From Acidimicrobiales bacterium (GTDB taxonomy: Bacteria; Actinomycetota; Acidimicrobiia; Acidimicrobiales; Aldehydirespiratoraceae), in NCBI GenBank assembly GCA_965200005.1, contig OZ241331.1, positions 543,770 through 607,769 of the forward strand: a DNA stretch of 64,000 nucleotides. Reading direction: 5' to 3'. Below, piece by piece: positions 2,966 to 23,145 of this stretch. The notes beneath the pieces are model-generated. The model ran no database searches. It worked only from the letters and a program-made list of their open reading frames with translations, and was not told the origin of the DNA. The position numbers and the translations under genes are program-made. The first letter of the stretch is position 1. Every line of letters begins with the position of its first letter.

Positions 2966-3298
2966 TCAGTGGTAATCCACGATCTCAATCACTGTGACGC
3001 TCTCCACCCGACTCCAGTCAAGCCCTCCGTCGGAGTTAACCGGCGCTGGACTCTCCGTGGGACGAAATACCAAACGGTAAGGGTGCTCAACATCTACTGC
3101 GAGAGTCCCCTTGCGATTTTGCATTAGTTCATGGCATCGGCCGGGAAGGTTCCTCATGTCCTTAAGCGACGGAGCAGCCTGCATCTGCTGGAGTCTGAGA
3201 GAGACCTTCTTCGCCCCTGTCACTCCAAAGATGCGCCGGAGCTTTGACGCATCAGAGAGCTGCCGTTGAAGTTTCTTCGTCGCAAACAAGACTTCCAC
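2966..3298 (-). CDS. HigB-like toxin (plasmid maintenance system killer protein, RelE superfamily)
   Basis: 110 aa. Pattern ...LRLQQMQAAPSLKDMRNLPGRCHELMQNRKGTLAVDV..PYRLVF....VIEIVDYH is typical of the HigB/killer family. A 3-nt gap separates it from the downstream HTH gene. Confidence 0.7.
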   Translation of the reverse strand: MEVLFATKKLQRQLSDASKLRRIFGVTGAKKVSLRLQQMQAAPSLKDMRNLPGRCHELMQNRKGTLAVDVEHPYRLVFRPTESPAPVNSDGGLDWSRVESVTVIEIVDYH

Positions 3299-8436: not shown

Positions 8437-8457
8437 GACCTCGATGTTAGACGGAGT

Positions 8458-8560
8458 TGCAAATCCGCATGGGGTCGAACTACAAATCCGCATGGGGTCG
8501 AACTGCAAATCCGCATGGGGTCGAACTGCAAATCCGCACATCGACGAACTGCAAATCCGC
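8458..8560. repeat. Tandem direct repeat, 23-bp period, about 4.4 copies
   Basis: Copies start at 8461, 8484, 8507 and 8530, with a partial copy at 8553. Unit AAATCCGCATGGGGTCGAACTGC. Copies 1-3 are near-identical; copy 4 diverges centrally (CACATCGACG). Confidence 0.95.
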
Positions 8561-8610: not shown

Positions 8611-10878
8611 TCAAGGCTGGAGCTTGTTTCGTGTCGCGGTCAGCAGTGCCCACACTCGTTGCGGGGTAAGGGGCAGCTCCGTTGGCCAGACCCCGACTGC
8701 ATGCCCGACGGCTGAAGCAACAGCAGCGGGAACTGGGTTCAGTGTTCCTTCGCCTCCACCTTTGGCGCCGTACGGGCCAACCCCGTCGCGGCGCTCAGCG
8801 ACCACAGAAGTGATACGGCGAGGCTTGTCACGCAGTCGGGGCACCCTGTATTCGACCATGTTGGGATTGGTTAACTGCTCGCCGTCATAGATCAACTCTT
8901 CCCAGAGGGCGATGCCCAATCCTTGGGTCGCAGCACCAATGTCTTGACCCTTGAGCAACGCCGGGCTGATGGCATGACCGACATCACCAACGGTGACGAG
9001 ATATTCGATCGTTACCTCGCCGGTGGATGCGTTGACTGCAACCTCGACGCCGACCACGCCGATCTCCCAGAACGGTGGCAGCTCCCGGGTGGTGCCGTCA
9101 CGGCGCATGATGCCCACACCAACCAACTCTCCGGCATCAGCACCGAACCAATCACAGATCACTTGCGCTGGCGTGCGGGGTTGACCGCACACGTTGATCT
9201 GACCGTCTCGGATCGTCACCTGCGCCAGTTCGACCCCGGCACGCTCGGCTGCGGCGGCCCGCAACTTCTCCCAAAGATCCGCACAAGCTGCCTGCACCGA
9301 GAGCCCAACGATTGTTGTGGTGCGGCTTGCACCGGTAGTCCATTCAAAGGGCGTGAAGCGGGTGTCGCTCTGGCCAACCGCAACCGCCTCGGGAGGCATG
9401 CACATCTCTCGTGCGGCTATGGCCGCCAGGGTCGAGCGGCTGCCCTGGCCCATCTCAGTGCTGCTCACTAGCAGAGTGAGCGACCCATCTGAGTGCAGCC
9501 TCACTTGTGCGGTGGAGATCGGCGAAGCTCCGGCATCGCTGGCGGTCAGCGCCACGGCATGTCCTCGCAACACGCCAGGCTCTGGGGCTCGGGGCGGTGC
9601 CTCACTCAAGGCTTTGGCTACGGCTTGCAGATCTGCAGCTAGGTCTGCATCAAGTGGACGCTTGCCTTCGATGAGTGATTCGCCGGGGGCGACAAGGTTG
9701 CGGCGGCGCAACTCAACCGGGTCGATCCCGAGTCGGGCCGCCGCCATGTTCATGTTCAACTCTCCGGCGAGCGCTGCTTGAGGTGCGCCGAAGCCCCGGT
9801 ATGAGGATGCTGGCGAGGTGTTGGTGTAGACGGCCACGCCACGCACAGCCAGGTTGGGCACCCGGTAGGGGCCGAAGCTGCGGTTGATGCTCTTGGTGAG
9901 AACTAGCGGGCTGTTGTCGGCGTACGCACCGGTGTCGAAGCAGATGTCGATGTCACGAGCGACGATTCGGGCGTTGCTGTCAAATCCTGTTCGCACGCTG
10001 ACGATCGCACTGTCGGCTCGGGTGGTGTACATGGCGGCTTCGACGTCAGTGGTGACTTTCACTGGACGCCCCGTCGCCCAGGAGGCCACGGCGGCAAGAG
10101 GCTCAAGCTTGGTGTAGGACTTCGAGCCGTAGCCCCCGCCGATGTAGGGCACCTCGACTCGCACTTTGGCAAGCGGCAGCGAGAAGATCCGGGCAAGTTC
10201 TTTGCGCACCATGAGCGGATGCTGTGCCGTCGAGACAACGTGAAGACCGTCTGGCCGCCAGTCAGCTACCGAGTTGTAGGTCTCCATGGCGTAGCCGTAA
10301 ACGAGCGGGAATCTGGCTGTCGTCTCCACAACAGTTGCTGCGCTTGCGAGGGCTGCAGTCGCGTCCCCACGACGCAGTTCACCTCGATGGGCCACATTGT
10401 CTGCAGATGCTGAGGGTGCGACGTCGAGGAAGCCTTTGCCTGACTTAACGTAGAATTGATCGTGAATCAAAACGTCTGACTCAAGCGCTGCAGTTGCATC
10501 TGTGAGAGTTGGAAGTTCGTCGTAGTCGATCCAGATCAGAGCGGCTGCGTCTTCGGCCTGATGTGGTGTCTCGGCGACGACCACCGCTACAGGCTCGCCG
10601 AAGTAACGCACTTTGTCGATTGCGAGGATCGGATGGTCGGGGACGATGTGACCGAACCGGCGACGCAGTCCGCCCAAATCGTCGCTTGTAAGTATCGCGA
10701 TCACTCCTGGTGCGTTGCTGGCTTCGTCAGTGTCGATACCGGTGATGAGTGCGTGTGCTCGTTCGGAGCGCACGACGGCACTGTGAGCCATGTTTGGCAT
10801 CGTCGTGTCAATTGCGAACCGGGCGCGACCTGTGACCTTGTCCCATGCGTCCAGCCGGGGGCGCTGTGCCTTAGTCAC
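8611..10878 (-). CDS. Xanthine dehydrogenase/aldehyde oxidase family molybdopterin-binding large subunit (CoxL-like)
   Basis: 755 aa. N-terminal DKVTGRARFAIDT motif, consistent length, and an operon with 2Fe-2S and FAD subunits. Confidence 0.9.
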   Translation of the reverse strand: MTKAQRPRLDAWDKVTGRARFAIDTTMPNMAHSAVVRSERAHALITGIDTDEASNAPGVIAILTSDDLGGLRRRFGHIVPDHPILAIDKVRYFGEPVAVVVAETPHQAEDAAALIWIDYDELPTLTDATAALESDVLIHDQFYVKSGKGFLDVAPSASADNVAHRGELRRGDATAALASAATVVETTARFPLVYGYAMETYNSVADWRPDGLHVVSTAQHPLMVRKELARIFSLPLAKVRVEVPYIGGGYGSKSYTKLEPLAAVASWATGRPVKVTTDVEAAMYTTRADSAIVSVRTGFDSNARIVARDIDICFDTGAYADNSPLVLTKSINRSFGPYRVPNLAVRGVAVYTNTSPASSYRGFGAPQAALAGELNMNMAAARLGIDPVELRRRNLVAPGESLIEGKRPLDADLAADLQAVAKALSEAPPRAPEPGVLRGHAVALTASDAGASPISTAQVRLHSDGSLTLLVSSTEMGQGSRSTLAAIAAREMCMPPEAVAVGQSDTRFTPFEWTTGASRTTTIVGLSVQAACADLWEKLRAAAAERAGVELAQVTIRDGQINVCGQPRTPAQVICDWFGADAGELVGVGIMRRDGTTRELPPFWEIGVVGVEVAVNASTGEVTIEYLVTVGDVGHAISPALLKGQDIGAATQGLGIALWEELIYDGEQLTNPNMVEYRVPRLRDKPRRITSVVAERRDGVGPYGAKGGGEGTLNPVPAAVASAVGHAVGVWPTELPLTPQRVWALLTATRNKLQP

Positions 10879-18621: not shown

Positions 18622-19032
18622 TCATGGCACGATCTTGAAGTGACCACCAAAGAGCGGACGCATGACCCGAAAGTGCTTGTGATCAAGTGTCAAGATCGTG
18701 CGTGTCCTATAGCGATGCGCCAACACCACCAGTGAGGCGTCAGTAATCCCGATGTTCATCTTCTCGTAGCGCTTCACGACTCGCCGAGCGGCCTTGACAT
18801 CAGCAGCCTTCATGTGAGGCAGTTCATAGGCGCCTGCCGACAACTCGGCCAGAACCCCCAACTCAGCGGCCACTCCTACTCGGGTTGAAATTAGGTAGTC
18901 AAGCTCAGCAACCACGTAGGGCGAGACAACCATCATGGGTTCAGTTGAGAGCAACCACTTCACAACCGCATCGTGTTCAACCCCAGACTCGCTATAGAGC
19001 GCTACCAAGGCGCTCGTGTCAGCAATAATCAC
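18622..19032 (-). CDS. vapC: PIN-domain toxin VapC
   Basis: VIIADTSALVAL N-terminal acidic motif and ITDASLVVLA. The GTG start overlaps the VapB stop (GTGA). Confidence 0.8.
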   Translation of the reverse strand: MIIADTSALVALYSESGVEHDAVVKWLLSTEPMMVVSPYVVAELDYLISTRVGVAAELGVLAELSAGAYELPHMKAADVKAARRVVKRYEKMNIGITDASLVVLAHRYRTRTILTLDHKHFRVMRPLFGGHFKIVP

Positions 19033-19238
19033 TGCTCGCCGAAACCGTCCAAGTAACGATCGACGTTGTTCGCCCATGCGCTGTCGCCGGGAATGAACCC
19101 ATACCGGGGCTTGGGGCGTGATAACGAGTCACGAAGTGCTTGGCGAATCACCTCGGCTTCTGAACACCCACGCTGCCGTGCCATCTCGGTGACAGCCCGC
19201 TTGAGACTCTCCGGCAAGTACACGGTCGTTTTCTTCAT
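19029..19238 (-). CDS. vapB: Ribbon-helix-helix (CopG-type) antitoxin VapB
   Basis: 69 aa. MKKTTVYLPESLKRAVTEMARQRGCSEAEVIRQALR is a typical RHH. Confidence 0.8.
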   Translation of the reverse strand: MKKTTVYLPESLKRAVTEMARQRGCSEAEVIRQALRDSLSRPKPRYGFIPGDSAWANNVDRYLDGFGEQ

Positions 19239-19288: not shown

Positions 19289-20275
19289 TTAGGCATCGTC
19301 GGGGGCGCGGACTAGGAGGGTTGGGGGTTCAGGGAGCGAGCTCTCGTGGACTTGTACGGCTCCGCCGTTGAAGTGCTGGCGGTACCAGTCGACCATCTCT
19401 GGGATCACAGCGGGGCCGTACTGTCGGTAGGCTGCGTAGTGGGTGGTGTGACGTTGCATCACCAGTTTCTTGGGGGCATTAGCTCGCTCGTAGAGCTGCA
19501 CCGCATGGTCGGTTGGGGTGACCGCGTCATCATCGACGGCGATGATCATCAGCGCTGCGGGTGCCACCCGGTCAACTACATCAATGGGTCGGTAGTCAAG
19601 GATCGCTTCAGCGCAGCGCAGCGGCACTGACGACGGGATCCGGTCGTCCACATCGGCCTTCACCTTGGAGGCTCGCCGCTCCGGTGTAGGCACCATGATC
19701 TCCTCGCGAGGATGCACCATCTCGCCCGATCCCGTGAGCACACGCTGACGCCGGTCAGCCTCTAGTCGATCAAGGAACTCATACCACTCATGCTCACGAC
19801 GCATCCGCCGCAGCCAATCCTCACCATCGGCAACCGGCACTTGCGACACAGATACCCGCACCCGACGATCGGCCGCTGCTAGCAGCACCGCGTTACCACC
19901 GCCGGTGCCACCGCTACCAAACACACCGATGTTGTCGGCATCCACATCATCGCGAGTGCGTAGGTACGTAACGGCGTTGATCAAGTCCTCAAGTTGATGC
20001 TGCGGCAACAGAATGCCCCTGTCTCCGCCAGAGTCTCCAAAGCCCCGGTAGTCAAAGATCAGCACCATGAACCCGGACGCAGTGAGCGCTTCGTGGTAGG
20101 GCACGTAAAGTTTGGCGTCCTTGAGTCCCAGCCATCCGGGGCCTTGCACGATCGCAGGCATCCGCCCGTCAGGGTCATCGGTAGTGCGAAGCAGTCCGCT
20201 GAGACGAACACCCTCACTAAAGAACGTAACCCGACTTTCACGCATTTTGCGTTCCCTTCCATCTCTGTTATTCAC
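19289..20275 (-). CDS. Alpha/beta hydrolase
   Basis: 328 aa. DYRGFGDSGG and a nucleophile-elbow-like IGVFGSGGTGG; C-terminal HTTHY. Confidence 0.7.
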   Translation of the reverse strand: MNNRDGRERKMRESRVTFFSEGVRLSGLLRTTDDPDGRMPAIVQGPGWLGLKDAKLYVPYHEALTASGFMVLIFDYRGFGDSGGDRGILLPQHQLEDLINAVTYLRTRDDVDADNIGVFGSGGTGGGNAVLLAAADRRVRVSVSQVPVADGEDWLRRMRREHEWYEFLDRLEADRRQRVLTGSGEMVHPREEIMVPTPERRASKVKADVDDRIPSSVPLRCAEAILDYRPIDVVDRVAPAALMIIAVDDDAVTPTDHAVQLYERANAPKKLVMQRHTTHYAAYRQYGPAVIPEMVDWYRQHFNGGAVQVHESSLPEPPTLLVRAPDDA

Positions 20276-20584
20276 TCAAGGACACGTGTGTTATCGCATC
20301 TCGGAGCGGATTGGTCAGCGACTTGGGTCACAACCGGGCCACTCCGGAACGTCATTCTGAGTTGATCGTCCCCGAACTCGGTTTCCGATATCTCTACAGC
20401 AACCACTCCGGGCATACAATTCGACCTTGCCGAGGATCTAGACGGCTCGCGAGCACAAACCGTGCGCAAGCTGAAGGCCCAGATCCGCGGTTGGGGGGTA
20501 CACCCAGGATCGTGCTAGCAAAGTCTGCGCGCTGGCACCATCCAGACAGCCAAGAAGTCGGACAAATGAACAGGAGCAACCCAG

Positions 20585-21334
20585 ATGGCCGAGCTGATAG
20601 CACCAGGCGAGTTCAGAGTCGCTTTGGAAGAGGCGTTCTCGGGCACGATGGCCAAAGACGCTTCCTTTAGCCGCGCTTGGGCCAAGGGAAAACTTCTCAA
20701 GCAGCACTTTGTGAATTGGGCGACTAATCACTATCACTACATCGGCCCGTTCGGTGACTACCTGGGCCTCATGTATGCCAACACTCCCGACTATGCACGT
20801 GATGCCAAAGACTTCCTGTTGCAGAACATGTACGAAGAGGAGTTGAGCGACGACCGTCACACTGATCTGCTGATCCGCTTCGCTGAAGCATGTGGCGGCA
20901 CCCGTGCATACATGCAAGATCGCAACAACGCCATGCCCTTCACCAAGGGTCTGCAGGGCTGGATGTACTACGTGTCCGGTCGTGAAAACTTTGTGGTCTC
21001 TTCAGCAGCATTGATCGTGGGTCTTGAGTCGCAAGTGCCGTCGATTTACCGGACGCAGTACCCGACCCTCATCAATAAGTACGGCTTCTCTGAGTGGGAA
21101 GCCGAGTTCTTTGACCTGCACATTACGTCTGATGAGATTCACGGTGAGCGTGGCTATCAGATCGTGCTCAAGTACGCGGATACTCCCGAATTGCAGCAGC
21201 GCTGCTTGCACTTTGTGCGTGAGGCAGCGGACATGCGTTTCGCTTATACCAAGGCTCTGTATGAGCACTATGTCGAGCCCGACCTTGGGCCGTGGGTCGA
21301 ACTGGAGCATCGCGAGCCTGCGCTCGTCGCCTGA
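20585..21334 (+). CDS. PqqC/TenA-like heme-oxygenase-fold iron-containing redox enzyme
   Basis: 249 aa. FVNWATNHYHYIGPF...LLQNMYEEE...HTDLLIRFAEACG pattern of the Haem_oxygenase_2/PqqC family. Confidence 0.7.
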   Translation: MAELIAPGEFRVALEEAFSGTMAKDASFSRAWAKGKLLKQHFVNWATNHYHYIGPFGDYLGLMYANTPDYARDAKDFLLQNMYEEELSDDRHTDLLIRFAEACGGTRAYMQDRNNAMPFTKGLQGWMYYVSGRENFVVSSAALIVGLESQVPSIYRTQYPTLINKYGFSEWEAEFFDLHITSDEIHGERGYQIVLKYADTPELQQRCLHFVREAADMRFAYTKALYEHYVEPDLGPWVELEHREPALVA

Positions 21335-21346
21335 TTGGGTTGGCCC

Positions 21347-21454
21347 GTCATGCCATAGCTCATAGTCATGCCCCATAGCTCATAGTCATGCCCCATAGCT
21401 CATAGTCATGCCCCATAGCTCATAGTCATGCCCCATAGCTCATAGTCATGCCCC
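21347..21454. repeat. Tandem direct repeat, 20-bp period, 5 full copies plus a partial one; each copy carries an ATG
   Basis: Unit CCATAGCTCATAGTCATGCC, with copies at 21353, 21373, 21393, 21413 and 21433. ATGs at 21350, 21368, 21388, 21408, 21428 and 21448. Confidence 0.95.
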
Positions 21455-21810
21455 GAATTCACTTCAAGACCACAGACAACTATGTGGAGTTCGCTGATGG
21501 CGATGAGGTGAACATTCTGCGGATGTCGATCAGAGCCGATTGTGGTGTGCCCTGGAAGTGTGCGAGCGGTAACTGCGGCACCGATCGATTGCTGGTGGAA
21601 GAGGGGGCAGAGAATCTTGATCCTCCCCGGCGTCGCGAGCGGCTGCGTCTCGGTGAACTGCTTAACCAGGGGTATCGACTCGGTTGTCAGACGTATACCA
21701 GCGGTGACGTGACCGTGAGCTGGGATCCTGATCAGAAGGGCCTGGACGAGGACTCTGCTGCGGGTAAGCGCCTCAAGGCGAAGTGGCTTGGTGCTGCAGA
21801 TACCGACTGA
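21448..21810 (+). CDS. 2Fe-2S ferredoxin-like protein with an atypical ligand motif
   Basis: 120 aa. CASGNCGTD...GCQTY gives C-x4-C-x2-D where the third Cys is expected (Asp codon 21583-21585). The start codon is the last ATG of the tandem repeat. Confidence 0.55.
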   Translation: MPRIHFKTTDNYVEFADGDEVNILRMSIRADCGVPWKCASGNCGTDRLLVEEGAENLDPPRRRERLRLGELLNQGYRLGCQTYTSGDVTVSWDPDQKGLDEDSAAGKRLKAKWLGAADTD

Positions 21811-21846
21811 GCGATAGCGCCGATAGAGCGAGGAGCAGCAGCGGCA

Positions 21847-22191
21847 ATGCCAGCACCAAAGGGATGGTTTGAGGTGGACGCCACCACCGATCAACTCGCC
21901 GCCCGCAAGAAACTGGTGGTGCAACTATTCCGCCACGAGATCTTGTTGCTGTGGAACGATGGCGAACCTGTGGCTCTGTCCAACATTTGCATTCACCGTG
22001 GCCGCAAGCTCAATGAGGGCGTCATGCTTGGCACCCGGCTAGTTTGCGCCGGCCACCAGTGGGCCTATGAGCTCTCAACCGGCTACTGCAAGACCCGAGA
22101 TCGCTACCAGCCCCACTACTCCCTAGACATCCGAGAAGGCCAGATCTTCATCAAGCTCCCCGCCCAAAGAGGTCCCTCCCCAACCCCTTAG
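21847..22191 (+). CDS. Rieske [2Fe-2S] ferredoxin-type small protein (NirD-like)
   Basis: 114 aa. CIHRG...CAGHQW Rieske motif. Confidence 0.8.
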   Translation: MPAPKGWFEVDATTDQLAARKKLVVQLFRHEILLLWNDGEPVALSNICIHRGRKLNEGVMLGTRLVCAGHQWAYELSTGYCKTRDRYQPHYSLDIREGQIFIKLPAQRGPSPTP

Positions 22192-22356
22192 GGCCCCGCT
22201 CAACTAACTCGAAACGAATTCGGGTTCGCAACGGTTGCGGCGAAGATCGCAACGGCAATCGAATCGTCGGTTTCGTACCTTGCGTCTCGGCTACGGCCCT
22301 GCGACCAAGCGCTAACGTTTGCGCGGCAGCCAGAAAGGTTGGGTTGGAGGTTGGAG

Positions 22357-23145
22357 ATGGTTGAACCGAGGCTTCGGCGGTATCGGGCTTATGCCGGGTT
22401 TGTAACTACGCCGCAGTACTTTGACGACTCGCCGCAGCAGTTTTTGCAGGTGGCTCCTAAGGGGACTGGCATCCTTCAGAGGGTCAACCACATTGAGGAA
22501 TACCGCTACGAACTGGATCAACGGGCCACGCATTTTGGCGTACTAGAAGAGTCGGCAATCTGTCTTGGACGTTCCTTTTGTGAAGTGATCGGTCAGGTCG
22601 GTTCCAACTGGGTGCATTGCACCGGCACGTCCCCTACAGAGATCGAGGCGATCTGTGCTGACATCTCCGCCAAGGCCGGGGCTCCGTTCTTTATGGCCGG
22701 TCACTGTCTAGTTGAGGGTTTGCGTGAGATCGGTGCGGAGACGATCACAGTCGCCAACGGGTACTTCCGGTCGGACTGGCGTGACGGCATCAACGGATAC
22801 CTAGAAGCAGCTGGGTTCCGTATCCTGTGGGCCGGCAACCTCGTCGATCAGGGGATACTGGCAGATCTCGACGAGATGCTTGAGGTTGAGGCTGCCACCT
22901 TGTGGGATTACCCGAATAACCTGATGATCTCAGCCGCTGTTGATGCTCACAGCCGGGCGCCTAAGGCAGACGCCATCGTCCAAACTGGCGCAGGGTTTCG
23001 CATGTTGCAGGTTGTCGACACGATTGAAGGCCACACCTTGACACCAGTAGTGGCATCAGATTTTGCTCTCTACTGGGCCATGCTCAAAGAGCTCGGGCTT
23101 CCAGCCGCTCCCGGCCATGGCCACCTACTCAGCACGGTCTCCTAA
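22357..23145 (+). CDS. Asp/Glu racemase superfamily protein (maleate cis-trans isomerase/arylmalonate decarboxylase-like)
   Basis: HCTGTS...ITVANGY...DAIVQTGAGF...PVVASDFALYWAMLKELG pattern. ATG 22357 has GGAGG upstream. Confidence 0.6.
   Translation: MVEPRLRRYRAYAGFVTTPQYFDDSPQQFLQVAPKGTGILQRVNHIEEYRYELDQRATHFGVLEESAICLGRSFCEVIGQVGSNWVHCTGTSPTEIEAICADISAKAGAPFFMAGHCLVEGLREIGAETITVANGYFRSDWRDGINGYLEAAGFRILWAGNLVDQGILADLDEMLEVEAATLWDYPNNLMISAAVDAHSRAPKADAIVQTGAGFRMLQVVDTIEGHTLTPVVASDFALYWAMLKELGLPAAPGHGHLLSTVS

Follow-up and report, generated by a model that had tools for sequence, protein, structure and literature searches.

Gene organization around the array

We studied a tandem repeat array in a 64-kb stretch of bacterial DNA, called here the window (the whole stretch that was analysed). 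The array sits between the co-oriented PqqC-like and ferredoxin (fdx) genes of a conserved trio whose third member is a Rieske gene (Table 1). The gene order PqqC-like, Fer2, Rieske was kept in 136 loci, which had been collected by the adjacency of the PqqC-like and ferredoxin genes. The upstream protein scored 37 bits with TIGR02111 (PqqC; cut-off 240), as against 107 bits with PF14518, and its scores with the PqqC and CADD NCBIfam models were well under the cut-offs. Since it is a member of PF14518 that falls far under the cut-off of the PqqC model, "PqqC-like", the identity given in an earlier note on this DNA, is only a loose label, and the protein is not a true PqqC. The ferredoxin homologues were nearly all 120 aa long and aligned from residue 1; the ATG at 21448 is therefore the true fdx start, which agrees with the proposal that the sixth ATG of the series opens the 120-aa ferredoxin ORF.

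The trio resembles an uncharacterised three-component oxygenase system, i.e., a PF14518 enzyme that has a ferredoxin and a Rieske protein dedicated to it. The system occurs widely in Acidimicrobiia and was found also in Streptomyces, Rhodococcus and Nocardioides. Elsewhere in the window, a VapBC-type toxin-antitoxin pair of overlapping genes (PIN domain, 151 aa, and RHH_1, 69 aa) was inserted between the genes of a dihydroorotase-like amidohydrolase and an S15/S9-type hydrolase; the pair was present in locus L001 and missing from the same position in some sister loci.

Table 1 Coordinates of the features described in the text, numbered from the first nucleotide of the window
Feature	Coordinates	Strand	Sequence or evidence
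Upstream gene, 249-aa haem-oxygenase-like / CADD-type iron enzyme ("PqqC-like")	20585-21334	+	PF14518, 1.1e-30, 107 bits
Stop codon of the upstream gene	21332-21334	+	TGA
Non-repeat left flank of the spacer, 15 nt	21335-21349	+	TTGGGTTGGCCCGTC
Array	21350-21454	+	18-nt unit, four 20-nt units, 7-nt partial unit
First unit, shortened (18 nt, minus CC)	21350-21367	+	ATGCCATAGCTCATAGTC
First mini-ORF, 2 codons	21350-21358	+	ATG CCA TAG
Four identical 20-nt units	21368-21447	+	ATGCCCCATAGCTCATAGTC; Tandem Repeats Finder and exact match
Mini-ORFs of the full units	21368-85, 21388-405, 21408-25, 21428-45	+	MPHSS*
Partial sixth unit (ferredoxin start codon and next 4 nt)	21448-21454	+	ATGCCCC; end given by Tandem Repeats Finder
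120-aa 2Fe-2S ferredoxin (fdx) gene, start region duplicated	21448-21810	+	PF00111
114-aa Rieske [2Fe-2S] gene, third of the trio	21847-22191	+	Own SD GAGGAG, -7.9 kcal/mol
VapBC-type toxin-antitoxin pair	18622-19238	-	PIN domain and RHH_1
Second array of the window, 23-bp unit	8458-8560	- (context)	TGCAAATCCGCATGGGGTCGAAC; 4.5 copies, 91% identity
Molybdopterin-binding dehydrogenase gene	8611-10878	-	

Anatomy of the array

Tandem Repeats Finder reported the array at 21353-21454, with period 20, 5.1 copies, 100% matches and a score of 204, the highest among the tandem arrays of the window. Its core consists of four exact head-to-tail copies of the 20-mer ATGCCCCATAGCTCATAGTC, and no other copy with up to three mismatches was found in the 64-kb window, the count in shuffled sequence also being 0. 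Each full unit reads ATG CCC CAT AGC TCA TAG, five sense codons and a TAG, and in all four cases the next ATG follows after 2 nt (TAG TC ATG), while the first mini-ORF is separated from the next ATG by 9 nt. From the stop of the upstream gene to the fdx ATG, the stop-to-start gaps are 15, 9, 2, 2, 2 and 2 nt. The train of tandem mini-ORFs described in the earlier note was borne out by Tandem Repeats Finder and by the sequence itself, with the first unit being only 18 nt, and the truncation of the first mini-ORF was found as claimed; the distance to the upstream stop had been given as 13 nt and required correction, the first ATG lying 15 nt past the TGA.

None of the three plus-strand frames stays open through the array, and since every decoy ORF is closed, the ferredoxin frame is unaffected by array copy number. 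The GC content of the array was 49%, compared with 60% for the window, and the unit is poor in G (3 in 20 nt). It contains an internal 7-nt sub-repeat (CATAGCT CATAGTC), and no inverted repeats or palindromes were found in the array. The units abut directly, i.e., they are not separated by unique spacers as in a CRISPR, and their 20 nt lie outside the 1-9 nt range of the units that shift frame or promoter spacing in SSR contingency loci.

A second tandem array of the window lies between the molybdopterin-binding dehydrogenase gene and an AAA_14/DUF4143 ATPase gene. Its unit has a length of 2 mod 3, like the 20-bp unit, and a minus-strand ATG in each copy; this array stops ~20 nt upstream of the likely start at 8438, an ATG that lies outside it.

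Translation signals and RNA structure

For neither the fdx ATG nor any of the unit ATGs was an upstream duplex with the anti-Shine-Dalgarno (anti-SD) sequence predicted. The energy was +1.3 kcal/mol in each case, compared with a median of -3.8 kcal/mol for 44 long ORFs of the window, and lay outside their 10-90% range; the statement that the unit has no evident Shine-Dalgarno (SD) sequence was confirmed. Folding of the spacer RNA was weaker than that of shuffled sequences (z=+2.05), 196 of 200 of which folded at least equally well, and because the spacer RNA is less structured than its shuffles, a riboswitch or attenuator reading was rejected. A leader-peptide attenuator was rejected as well, there being no terminator in the spacer, no Rfam match and no structure in the RNA; at gathering thresholds, Rfam gave no match in the whole window. 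The predicted accessibility of the true fdx start showed a weak trend with copy number in the 20-bp series and none in a series of 50-bp arrays (see below); it varied little overall, which weighs against the relay proposed below. Two features of a reinitiation relay were found, namely stops close to the next start (5 nt away in the 50-bp arrays) and an fdx start without anti-SD pairing.

Allelic variation in the lineage of the window

Exact look-ups of the two flanking proteins led to Logan short-read contigs from at least 14 sequencing runs. The proteins were identical to those of the window and the flanks ~99.9% identical, with 1-2 mismatches in 3,386 nt downstream. Only one Logan contig (L003) crossed the array, and it had 2.3 copies, against 5.1 in the window; note that every copy number, here and below, derives from metagenome assemblies, some at 4-14x coverage. 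The spacer of this contig reads ...GGCCCGTAGCCAGCCGG GTGCCCCATAGCTCATAGTC ATGCCCCATAACTCATAGTC ATGCCCCGAATT, i.e., two units, of which the first starts with GTG and the second shows a G>A change, preceded by a left edge absent from the window. The first 12 nt of the spacer are common to the window and to this alternative allele (L001-L010), and the sequences diverge beyond that point; the window allele is without AGCCAGCCGGGTGCC, which includes the ancestral-type GTG of the alternative allele. The remaining 13 of the 14 short-read contigs ended within the array, nine at ...TCATGCCCCATA and four beginning with GTCATGCCCCATAAC..., and such breaks are the expected behaviour of a de Bruijn graph for a repeat or a mixture of alleles.

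Array copy number, unit sequence and boundary differ while ~7 kb of flank is near-identical. Copy number, unit sequence and left edge evolve much faster than the flanking DNA, and the array is a hypervariable minisatellite (VNTR), one of the possibilities that had been raised for it. It has the head-to-tail units of ~10-100 bp and the difference in copy number between close strains by which VNTRs are recognised. In SSR contingency loci a hypermutable copy number generates heterogeneous expression within a population; the comparison here covered strains, and hypermutability was seen at that level. A 25-nt degenerate pattern (one unit and the next start) had 0 matches in 596 Gb of genome contigs and in JGI metagenome contigs. 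A search for the repeat in genomes and metagenomes had been suggested beforehand, and it returned nothing elsewhere; with no match to the pattern in either collection, a dispersed or mobile repeat family was rejected.

Arrays at the same start codon in sister lineages

In the genus Candidatus Aldehydirespirator (Acidimicrobiales), whose family includes sponge-associated and free-living lineages (PMC11706023), the usual spacer between the PqqC-like and ferredoxin genes is 34-60 nt long. About 28 of 34 genus lineages had this plain spacer, so the array is dispensable for the operon. The array-bearing lineages had spacers of 93-393 nt, and in distant relatives the spacer was mostly <100 nt with frequent SD sequences, e.g. 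GAGAGG or AGGA; the overall range at the junction was 6-393 nt. In many species of the genus (L033-L035, L040, L053, L058, L117, L118 and L121) the spacer was exactly 36 nt and is hence in frame. It is stop-free in L033 and L035, where read-through of the upstream stop would fuse the enzyme to the ferredoxin, and in L040 a second in-frame stop immediately follows the first. Long non-repetitive spacers, mutually unrelated, were also found at this junction (L038, 179 nt; L055, 336 nt; L028/L061, 187 nt; L059, 114 nt) in several other species, and may be insertions or arrays that have decayed completely.

A clade of three species of the genus carried a separate array at the fdx start, with the 50-bp unit CCGGGGCTCTGATCGGCATGCCGCGCATCTACTTCAAGACGGCGGCAGGA. 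Four contigs with one identical PqqC-like protein and flanks 99.3-99.8% identical had spacers of 93, 193, 193 and 393 nt because they contained 1.8 (L031), 3.8 and 3.8 (L029/L030) and 7.8 copies of the unit (L032, whose units are irregular and to which assembly errors may contribute). Two species-representative complete chromosomes had 3.9 copies at 99% identity (L041, OZ252146.1) and 2.9 copies at 97% identity (L042, OZ244866.1). The 50-bp arrays cover positions -167 to +22 of the fdx start and therefore take in the start as well as the first eight codons of the gene; every unit forms a decoy ORF of 14 codons (MPRIYFKTAAGPGL*) with its stop 5 nt before the next start. Apart from the start-codon region they have no sequence in common with the 20-bp unit, and their units retain a modest GGGG element (-4 to -5 kcal/mol) similar to that of single-copy relatives. 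A further lineage (L015) presented a decayed 71-bp duplicate of the fdx start region, with 33 nt at 85% and 18 of 24 positions matching in a systematic test, and no comparable start-region duplicate was found outside the genus among 88 more distant loci. The 336-nt spacer of L055, taken by eye for a fourth decayed duplicate, was unsupported in the systematic test (12 of 24 positions) and was discarded.

A neighbour-joining tree of 1,077 aligned nt of flanking coding sequence, without bootstrap, grouped the three species with 50-bp arrays in one clade whose sister was the single-copy L051, and placed the lineage of the window and L015 on separate long branches. The shared unit phase and boundaries of the 50-bp arrays agreed with the tree. 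These comparisons point to three independent duplication events (window, 50-bp clade and L015) among the 34 sampled lineages, and indicate that, besides the lineage of the window, at least two others in the genus duplicated this start codon independently. Within the 50-bp clade the flanks were 94-96% identical, whereas the units differed at 0-1 positions within an array and at 3-7 of 50 positions between species; the 50-bp arrays undergo concerted evolution and have been kept through speciation. In two lineages the leftmost unit of the 50-bp array retains the ancestral GTG, whereas the homogenised units and the gene have ATG, and homogenisation therefore extends into the start codon of the gene.

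Two other arrays were found in the same operon. The chromosome L041 (OZ252146.1) had, at 3153-3236, a 32-bp unit in 2.6 copies (96% identity) that runs across the Rieske stop and has a CTGA in each unit, and a distant Acidimicrobiales MAG (L090, OY730477.1) had, at 1203-1436, a perfect 66-bp unit in 3.5 copies that ends ~65 nt upstream of the PqqC-like gene, likely in the promoter region of the operon.

Origin of the units

The array of the window extends 7 nt (+6) into the fdx gene, and its units share ATGCCCC with it. This indicates that the minisatellite arose by tandem duplication of the fdx translation start region, i.e., 13 nt of upstream sequence plus ATGCCCC. The leftmost unit of L003 starts with GTG, which is the ferredoxin start in most relatives, and the sequence before it resembles the upstream region of those relatives. 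The simplest history would be a duplication between two TGCCCC motifs 20 nt apart (GTGCCCCATAG... and ATGCCCCGAAT...), followed by expansion; in the window allele, later deletions at the left edge would have removed the ancestral GTG together with its upstream context.

Another duplication at the 5' end of a ferredoxin gene was seen in a distant lineage: P0226, a 155-aa homologue (64% identical) on a 701-nt ENA contig, carries its first ~35 residues twice, in frame and diverged, as MPKITFLTTGRTIDFPEGDEVNLLRVALRHE... and then MPTIEFRTSGCKVEFAEGDEVNMLRVAIRND.... With this exception, the longer ferredoxin calls (125-157 aa), considered as possible arrays, were mostly C-terminal extensions or spurious upstream starts and were rejected.

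Proposed mechanism

The best explanation, to which we would give about an even chance, is that the array is a self-derived VNTR that acts as a copy-number-dependent ribosome relay to the ferredoxin start. A gene without an SD can receive its ribosomes from a short ORF that ends beside its start codon, and translational coupling weakens as distance grows (PMC12548453); in addition, the copy number of intergenic repeats tunes expression in Mycobacterium tuberculosis (PMC12817950) and Haemophilus influenzae (PMC12721329). In the proposed relay, slippage in replication or unequal recombination between identical units would alter the copy number. On the polycistronic mRNA, each unit would present a decoy ATG and then a stop, with 2 nt left to the next ATG. 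A ribosome arriving from the stop of the upstream gene 15 nt away, or binding the unstructured, G-poor RNA directly, would translate a mini-cistron of 2-5 codons, terminate and re-initiate at the next ATG, and would be relayed in this way to the real, SD-less ferredoxin ATG. Copy number would fix the count of entry points and of relay steps and would thereby set the output of ferredoxin, and possibly of the Rieske protein, relative to the upstream enzyme; as it varies, it would yield heterogeneity from cell to cell and from strain to strain.

The termination-reinitiation coupling that was suggested earlier is plausible, given that the anatomy (2-nt gaps, no SD, unstructured RNA) fits it, and the array may tune the amount of ferredoxin. 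Note that the term "throttle", also suggested, takes for granted which way the effect goes; with extra ATGs, ribosomes could equally gain entry points.

Alternative explanations and the background of arrays

A tolerated neutral VNTR is the strongest competitor of the relay, with a sizeable chance of being correct that nevertheless stays below even. Copy number would then have no meaningful effect on ferredoxin expression and nothing would be selected; slippage-prone duplications, arising genome-wide, would survive at this place since the spacer is unconstrained and a pre-existing upstream stop closes the decoys. We counted the arrays with a period of at least 15, at least 2.5 copies and at least 90% identity in 147 kb of close-clade loci. 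Eight qualified, four of them on the ferredoxin start, and the other four were an in-frame coding repeat, one across the Rieske stop codon and intergenic ones. The background formed by these other four, ~1 array per 35 kb in these genomes, with 2 in the 64-kb window, is high and speaks for neutrality, as do the free variation of spacer length and sequence at the junction, the absence of any array from most species and the failure to find a conserved structure or motif: RNAalifold on 20 single-copy relatives gave no covarying structure around the fdx start. DNA hairpins were not significant as a cause of a slippage hot spot. When duplications spanning the start were simulated at random, 29-63% gave a closed decoy ORF, so that the mini-ORF design argues only weakly for selection.

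The enrichment of arrays at the fdx junction depended on the null chosen. Under a naive one (array density times target size), the probability was 0.009 for at least two events and 0.0004 for at least three; under a generous one, in which all arrays are restricted to intergenic spacers, it was 0.25 and 0.08, respectively, and not significant. The recurrence at the fdx start codon is suggestive. Neutrality is harder to reconcile with half of the qualifying arrays in related loci lying exactly on that codon, and with three independent events that each included the start codon itself. The 50-bp array is found in all three descendant species, although its copies range from 1.8 to 7.8 among strains 99.3-99.8% identical, and a neutral random walk that ends in loss once a single copy is left would tend to remove it. 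The array of the window, moreover, replaced the entire ancestral initiation region, which makes an effect on translation hard to avoid.

This persistence of the 50-bp array in spite of fast change in copy number would be the strongest argument for maintenance. A more demanding version of the ribosome relay is a selected, phase-variable translational rheostat, of a kind so far undescribed, in which the duplicated initiation region would serve as a train of decoy mini-cistrons that relay ribosomes to the SD-less start codon and slippage would set the ratio of ferredoxin to oxygenase; it would have arisen two or more times, and Candidatus Aldehydirespirator would have maintained it as its species diverged. 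On the comparisons made here we regard it as possible but rather doubtful.

A tandem repeat of the promoter type, whose units would carry or create an internal promoter so that copy number would alter fdx-Rieske transcription independently of the upstream gene, seems improbable. Phase-variable promoter tandem repeats are known in another actinobacterium (PMC12817950), the senX3-regX3 MIRU spacer is reported to have promoter activity (PMC4213456), and CATAGT in the unit matches TATAAT at 4 of 6 positions, including A2 and T6. A consensus scan for promoters and terminators over 20200-22400, however, found nothing in the spacer (21335-21447) and no promoter-like site in the array, where neither strand has a TANNNT hexamer and the unit has no -10 and -35 elements. 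Beyond the start-codon region the 50-bp and 20-bp units share no sequence, and hence no promoter logic common to both is evident.

Less probable still is an iteron-like array of binding sites for a DNA- or RNA-binding regulator that would recognise the CATAG-containing unit. The 7-nt sub-repeat and a period of 20 bp, near two helical turns, would suit such a role, but the motif was absent elsewhere in the window and in the public collections, the sister arrays at the same position are unrelated in sequence, and there are no palindromes. An assembly artefact, i.e., five copies mis-assembled or mis-polished, is hardly credible: the source is apparently a metagenome assembly and the copy number of a perfect array needs reads to verify, but a pure artefact is unlikely because the Logan contigs, assembled independently from at least 14 runs, contain the unit and the unit-unit and unit-gene junctions, the array of ~100 bp is far under the length of long reads, and the arrays of sister lineages come from several samples and also from complete chromosomes.

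Were translation tuned by copy number, as the ribosome relay would have it, the locus would offer a natural allelic series of 1 to ~8 identical mini-cistrons, some with an SD-like element and some without. With these alleles one could test the way in which bacterial ribosomes start again once they have terminated, which a recent review calls unresolved (PMC12548453). Phase-variable control by tandem repeats would then be found outside pathogens as well, in an uncultured genus of a family with sponge symbionts, and would extend from promoters to translation starts. Such loci are systematically under-reported because short-read assemblies break at the arrays, as in M. tuberculosis (PMC12817950). 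Should the array be neutral, it would still be a clean example of microsatellite-like turnover and of concerted evolution that reaches into a start codon.

Comparison with known repeat systems

Of the known systems, a MIRU-VNTR placed in an operon spacer comes nearest to the way the array would work, but the array departs from the MIRUs in two of the properties that define them. MIRU units are 40-100 bp long, dispersed and apparently mobile, and occupy many loci, whereas the 20-bp unit is found at a single locus; in addition, the ORFs of MIRUs overlap the next start (-4 spacing, ATGA type), whereas here the gap is +2 nt. The unit described here is also derived from the gene's own start region. 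The likeness lies in tandem units placed between co-transcribed actinobacterial genes (e.g. the senX3-regX3 spacer), with a copy number that is polymorphic between strains, and in a small ORF per unit that is placed to hand ribosomes to the downstream gene; the ORF of a MIRU is coupled to the gene that follows it and is thought to exploit ribosome delivery (PMC12548453).

The promoter tandem repeats of M. tuberculosis, such as VNTR3690 upstream of lpdA, are repeats of multiple tens of bp directly upstream of genes. They differ in copy number among lineages and inside isogenic populations, are masked in short-read assembly, and have been proposed as expression tuners (PMC12817950). They act through promoter strength, whereas the present array is intra-operonic, has no promoter-like hexamers and duplicates a start codon. 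The ATCTTTC repeats in the 5'-UTR of H. influenzae hmw1A likewise lead, by slippage upstream of a start codon, to graded expression (PMC12721329). Their unit is 7 nt, without start or stop codons, and a long RNA hairpin processed by RNase III is needed; the array described here, in contrast, is unstructured and made of start-stop mini-cistrons.

The TAACTGA heptamer arrays of marine Beggiatoaceae, Cyanobacteria and Bacteroidetes are intergenic direct repeats that end a few nt before starts and have stops in all frames; the genes downstream are mostly SD-less, and assemblies break there (PMC4679880). They are spread genome-wide, with 169 sets in one genome, and are built from one heptamer without ATG (PMC4679880), whereas the array of the window is at a single locus and has a 20-nt unit that includes the start codon. 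Translational coupling by short upstream ORFs is similar in that an ORF ending beside a start delivers the ribosome to an SD-less gene (PMC12548453), but the known cases have one upstream ORF, and here there is a train of five (up to ~8 in a sister lineage) whose number is variable. Three things are new with respect to these systems: the units derive from the initiation region of the gene itself, of which they are copies, their train of start-stop mini-cistrons varies in length, and such arrays occur repeatedly at one gene in one genus.
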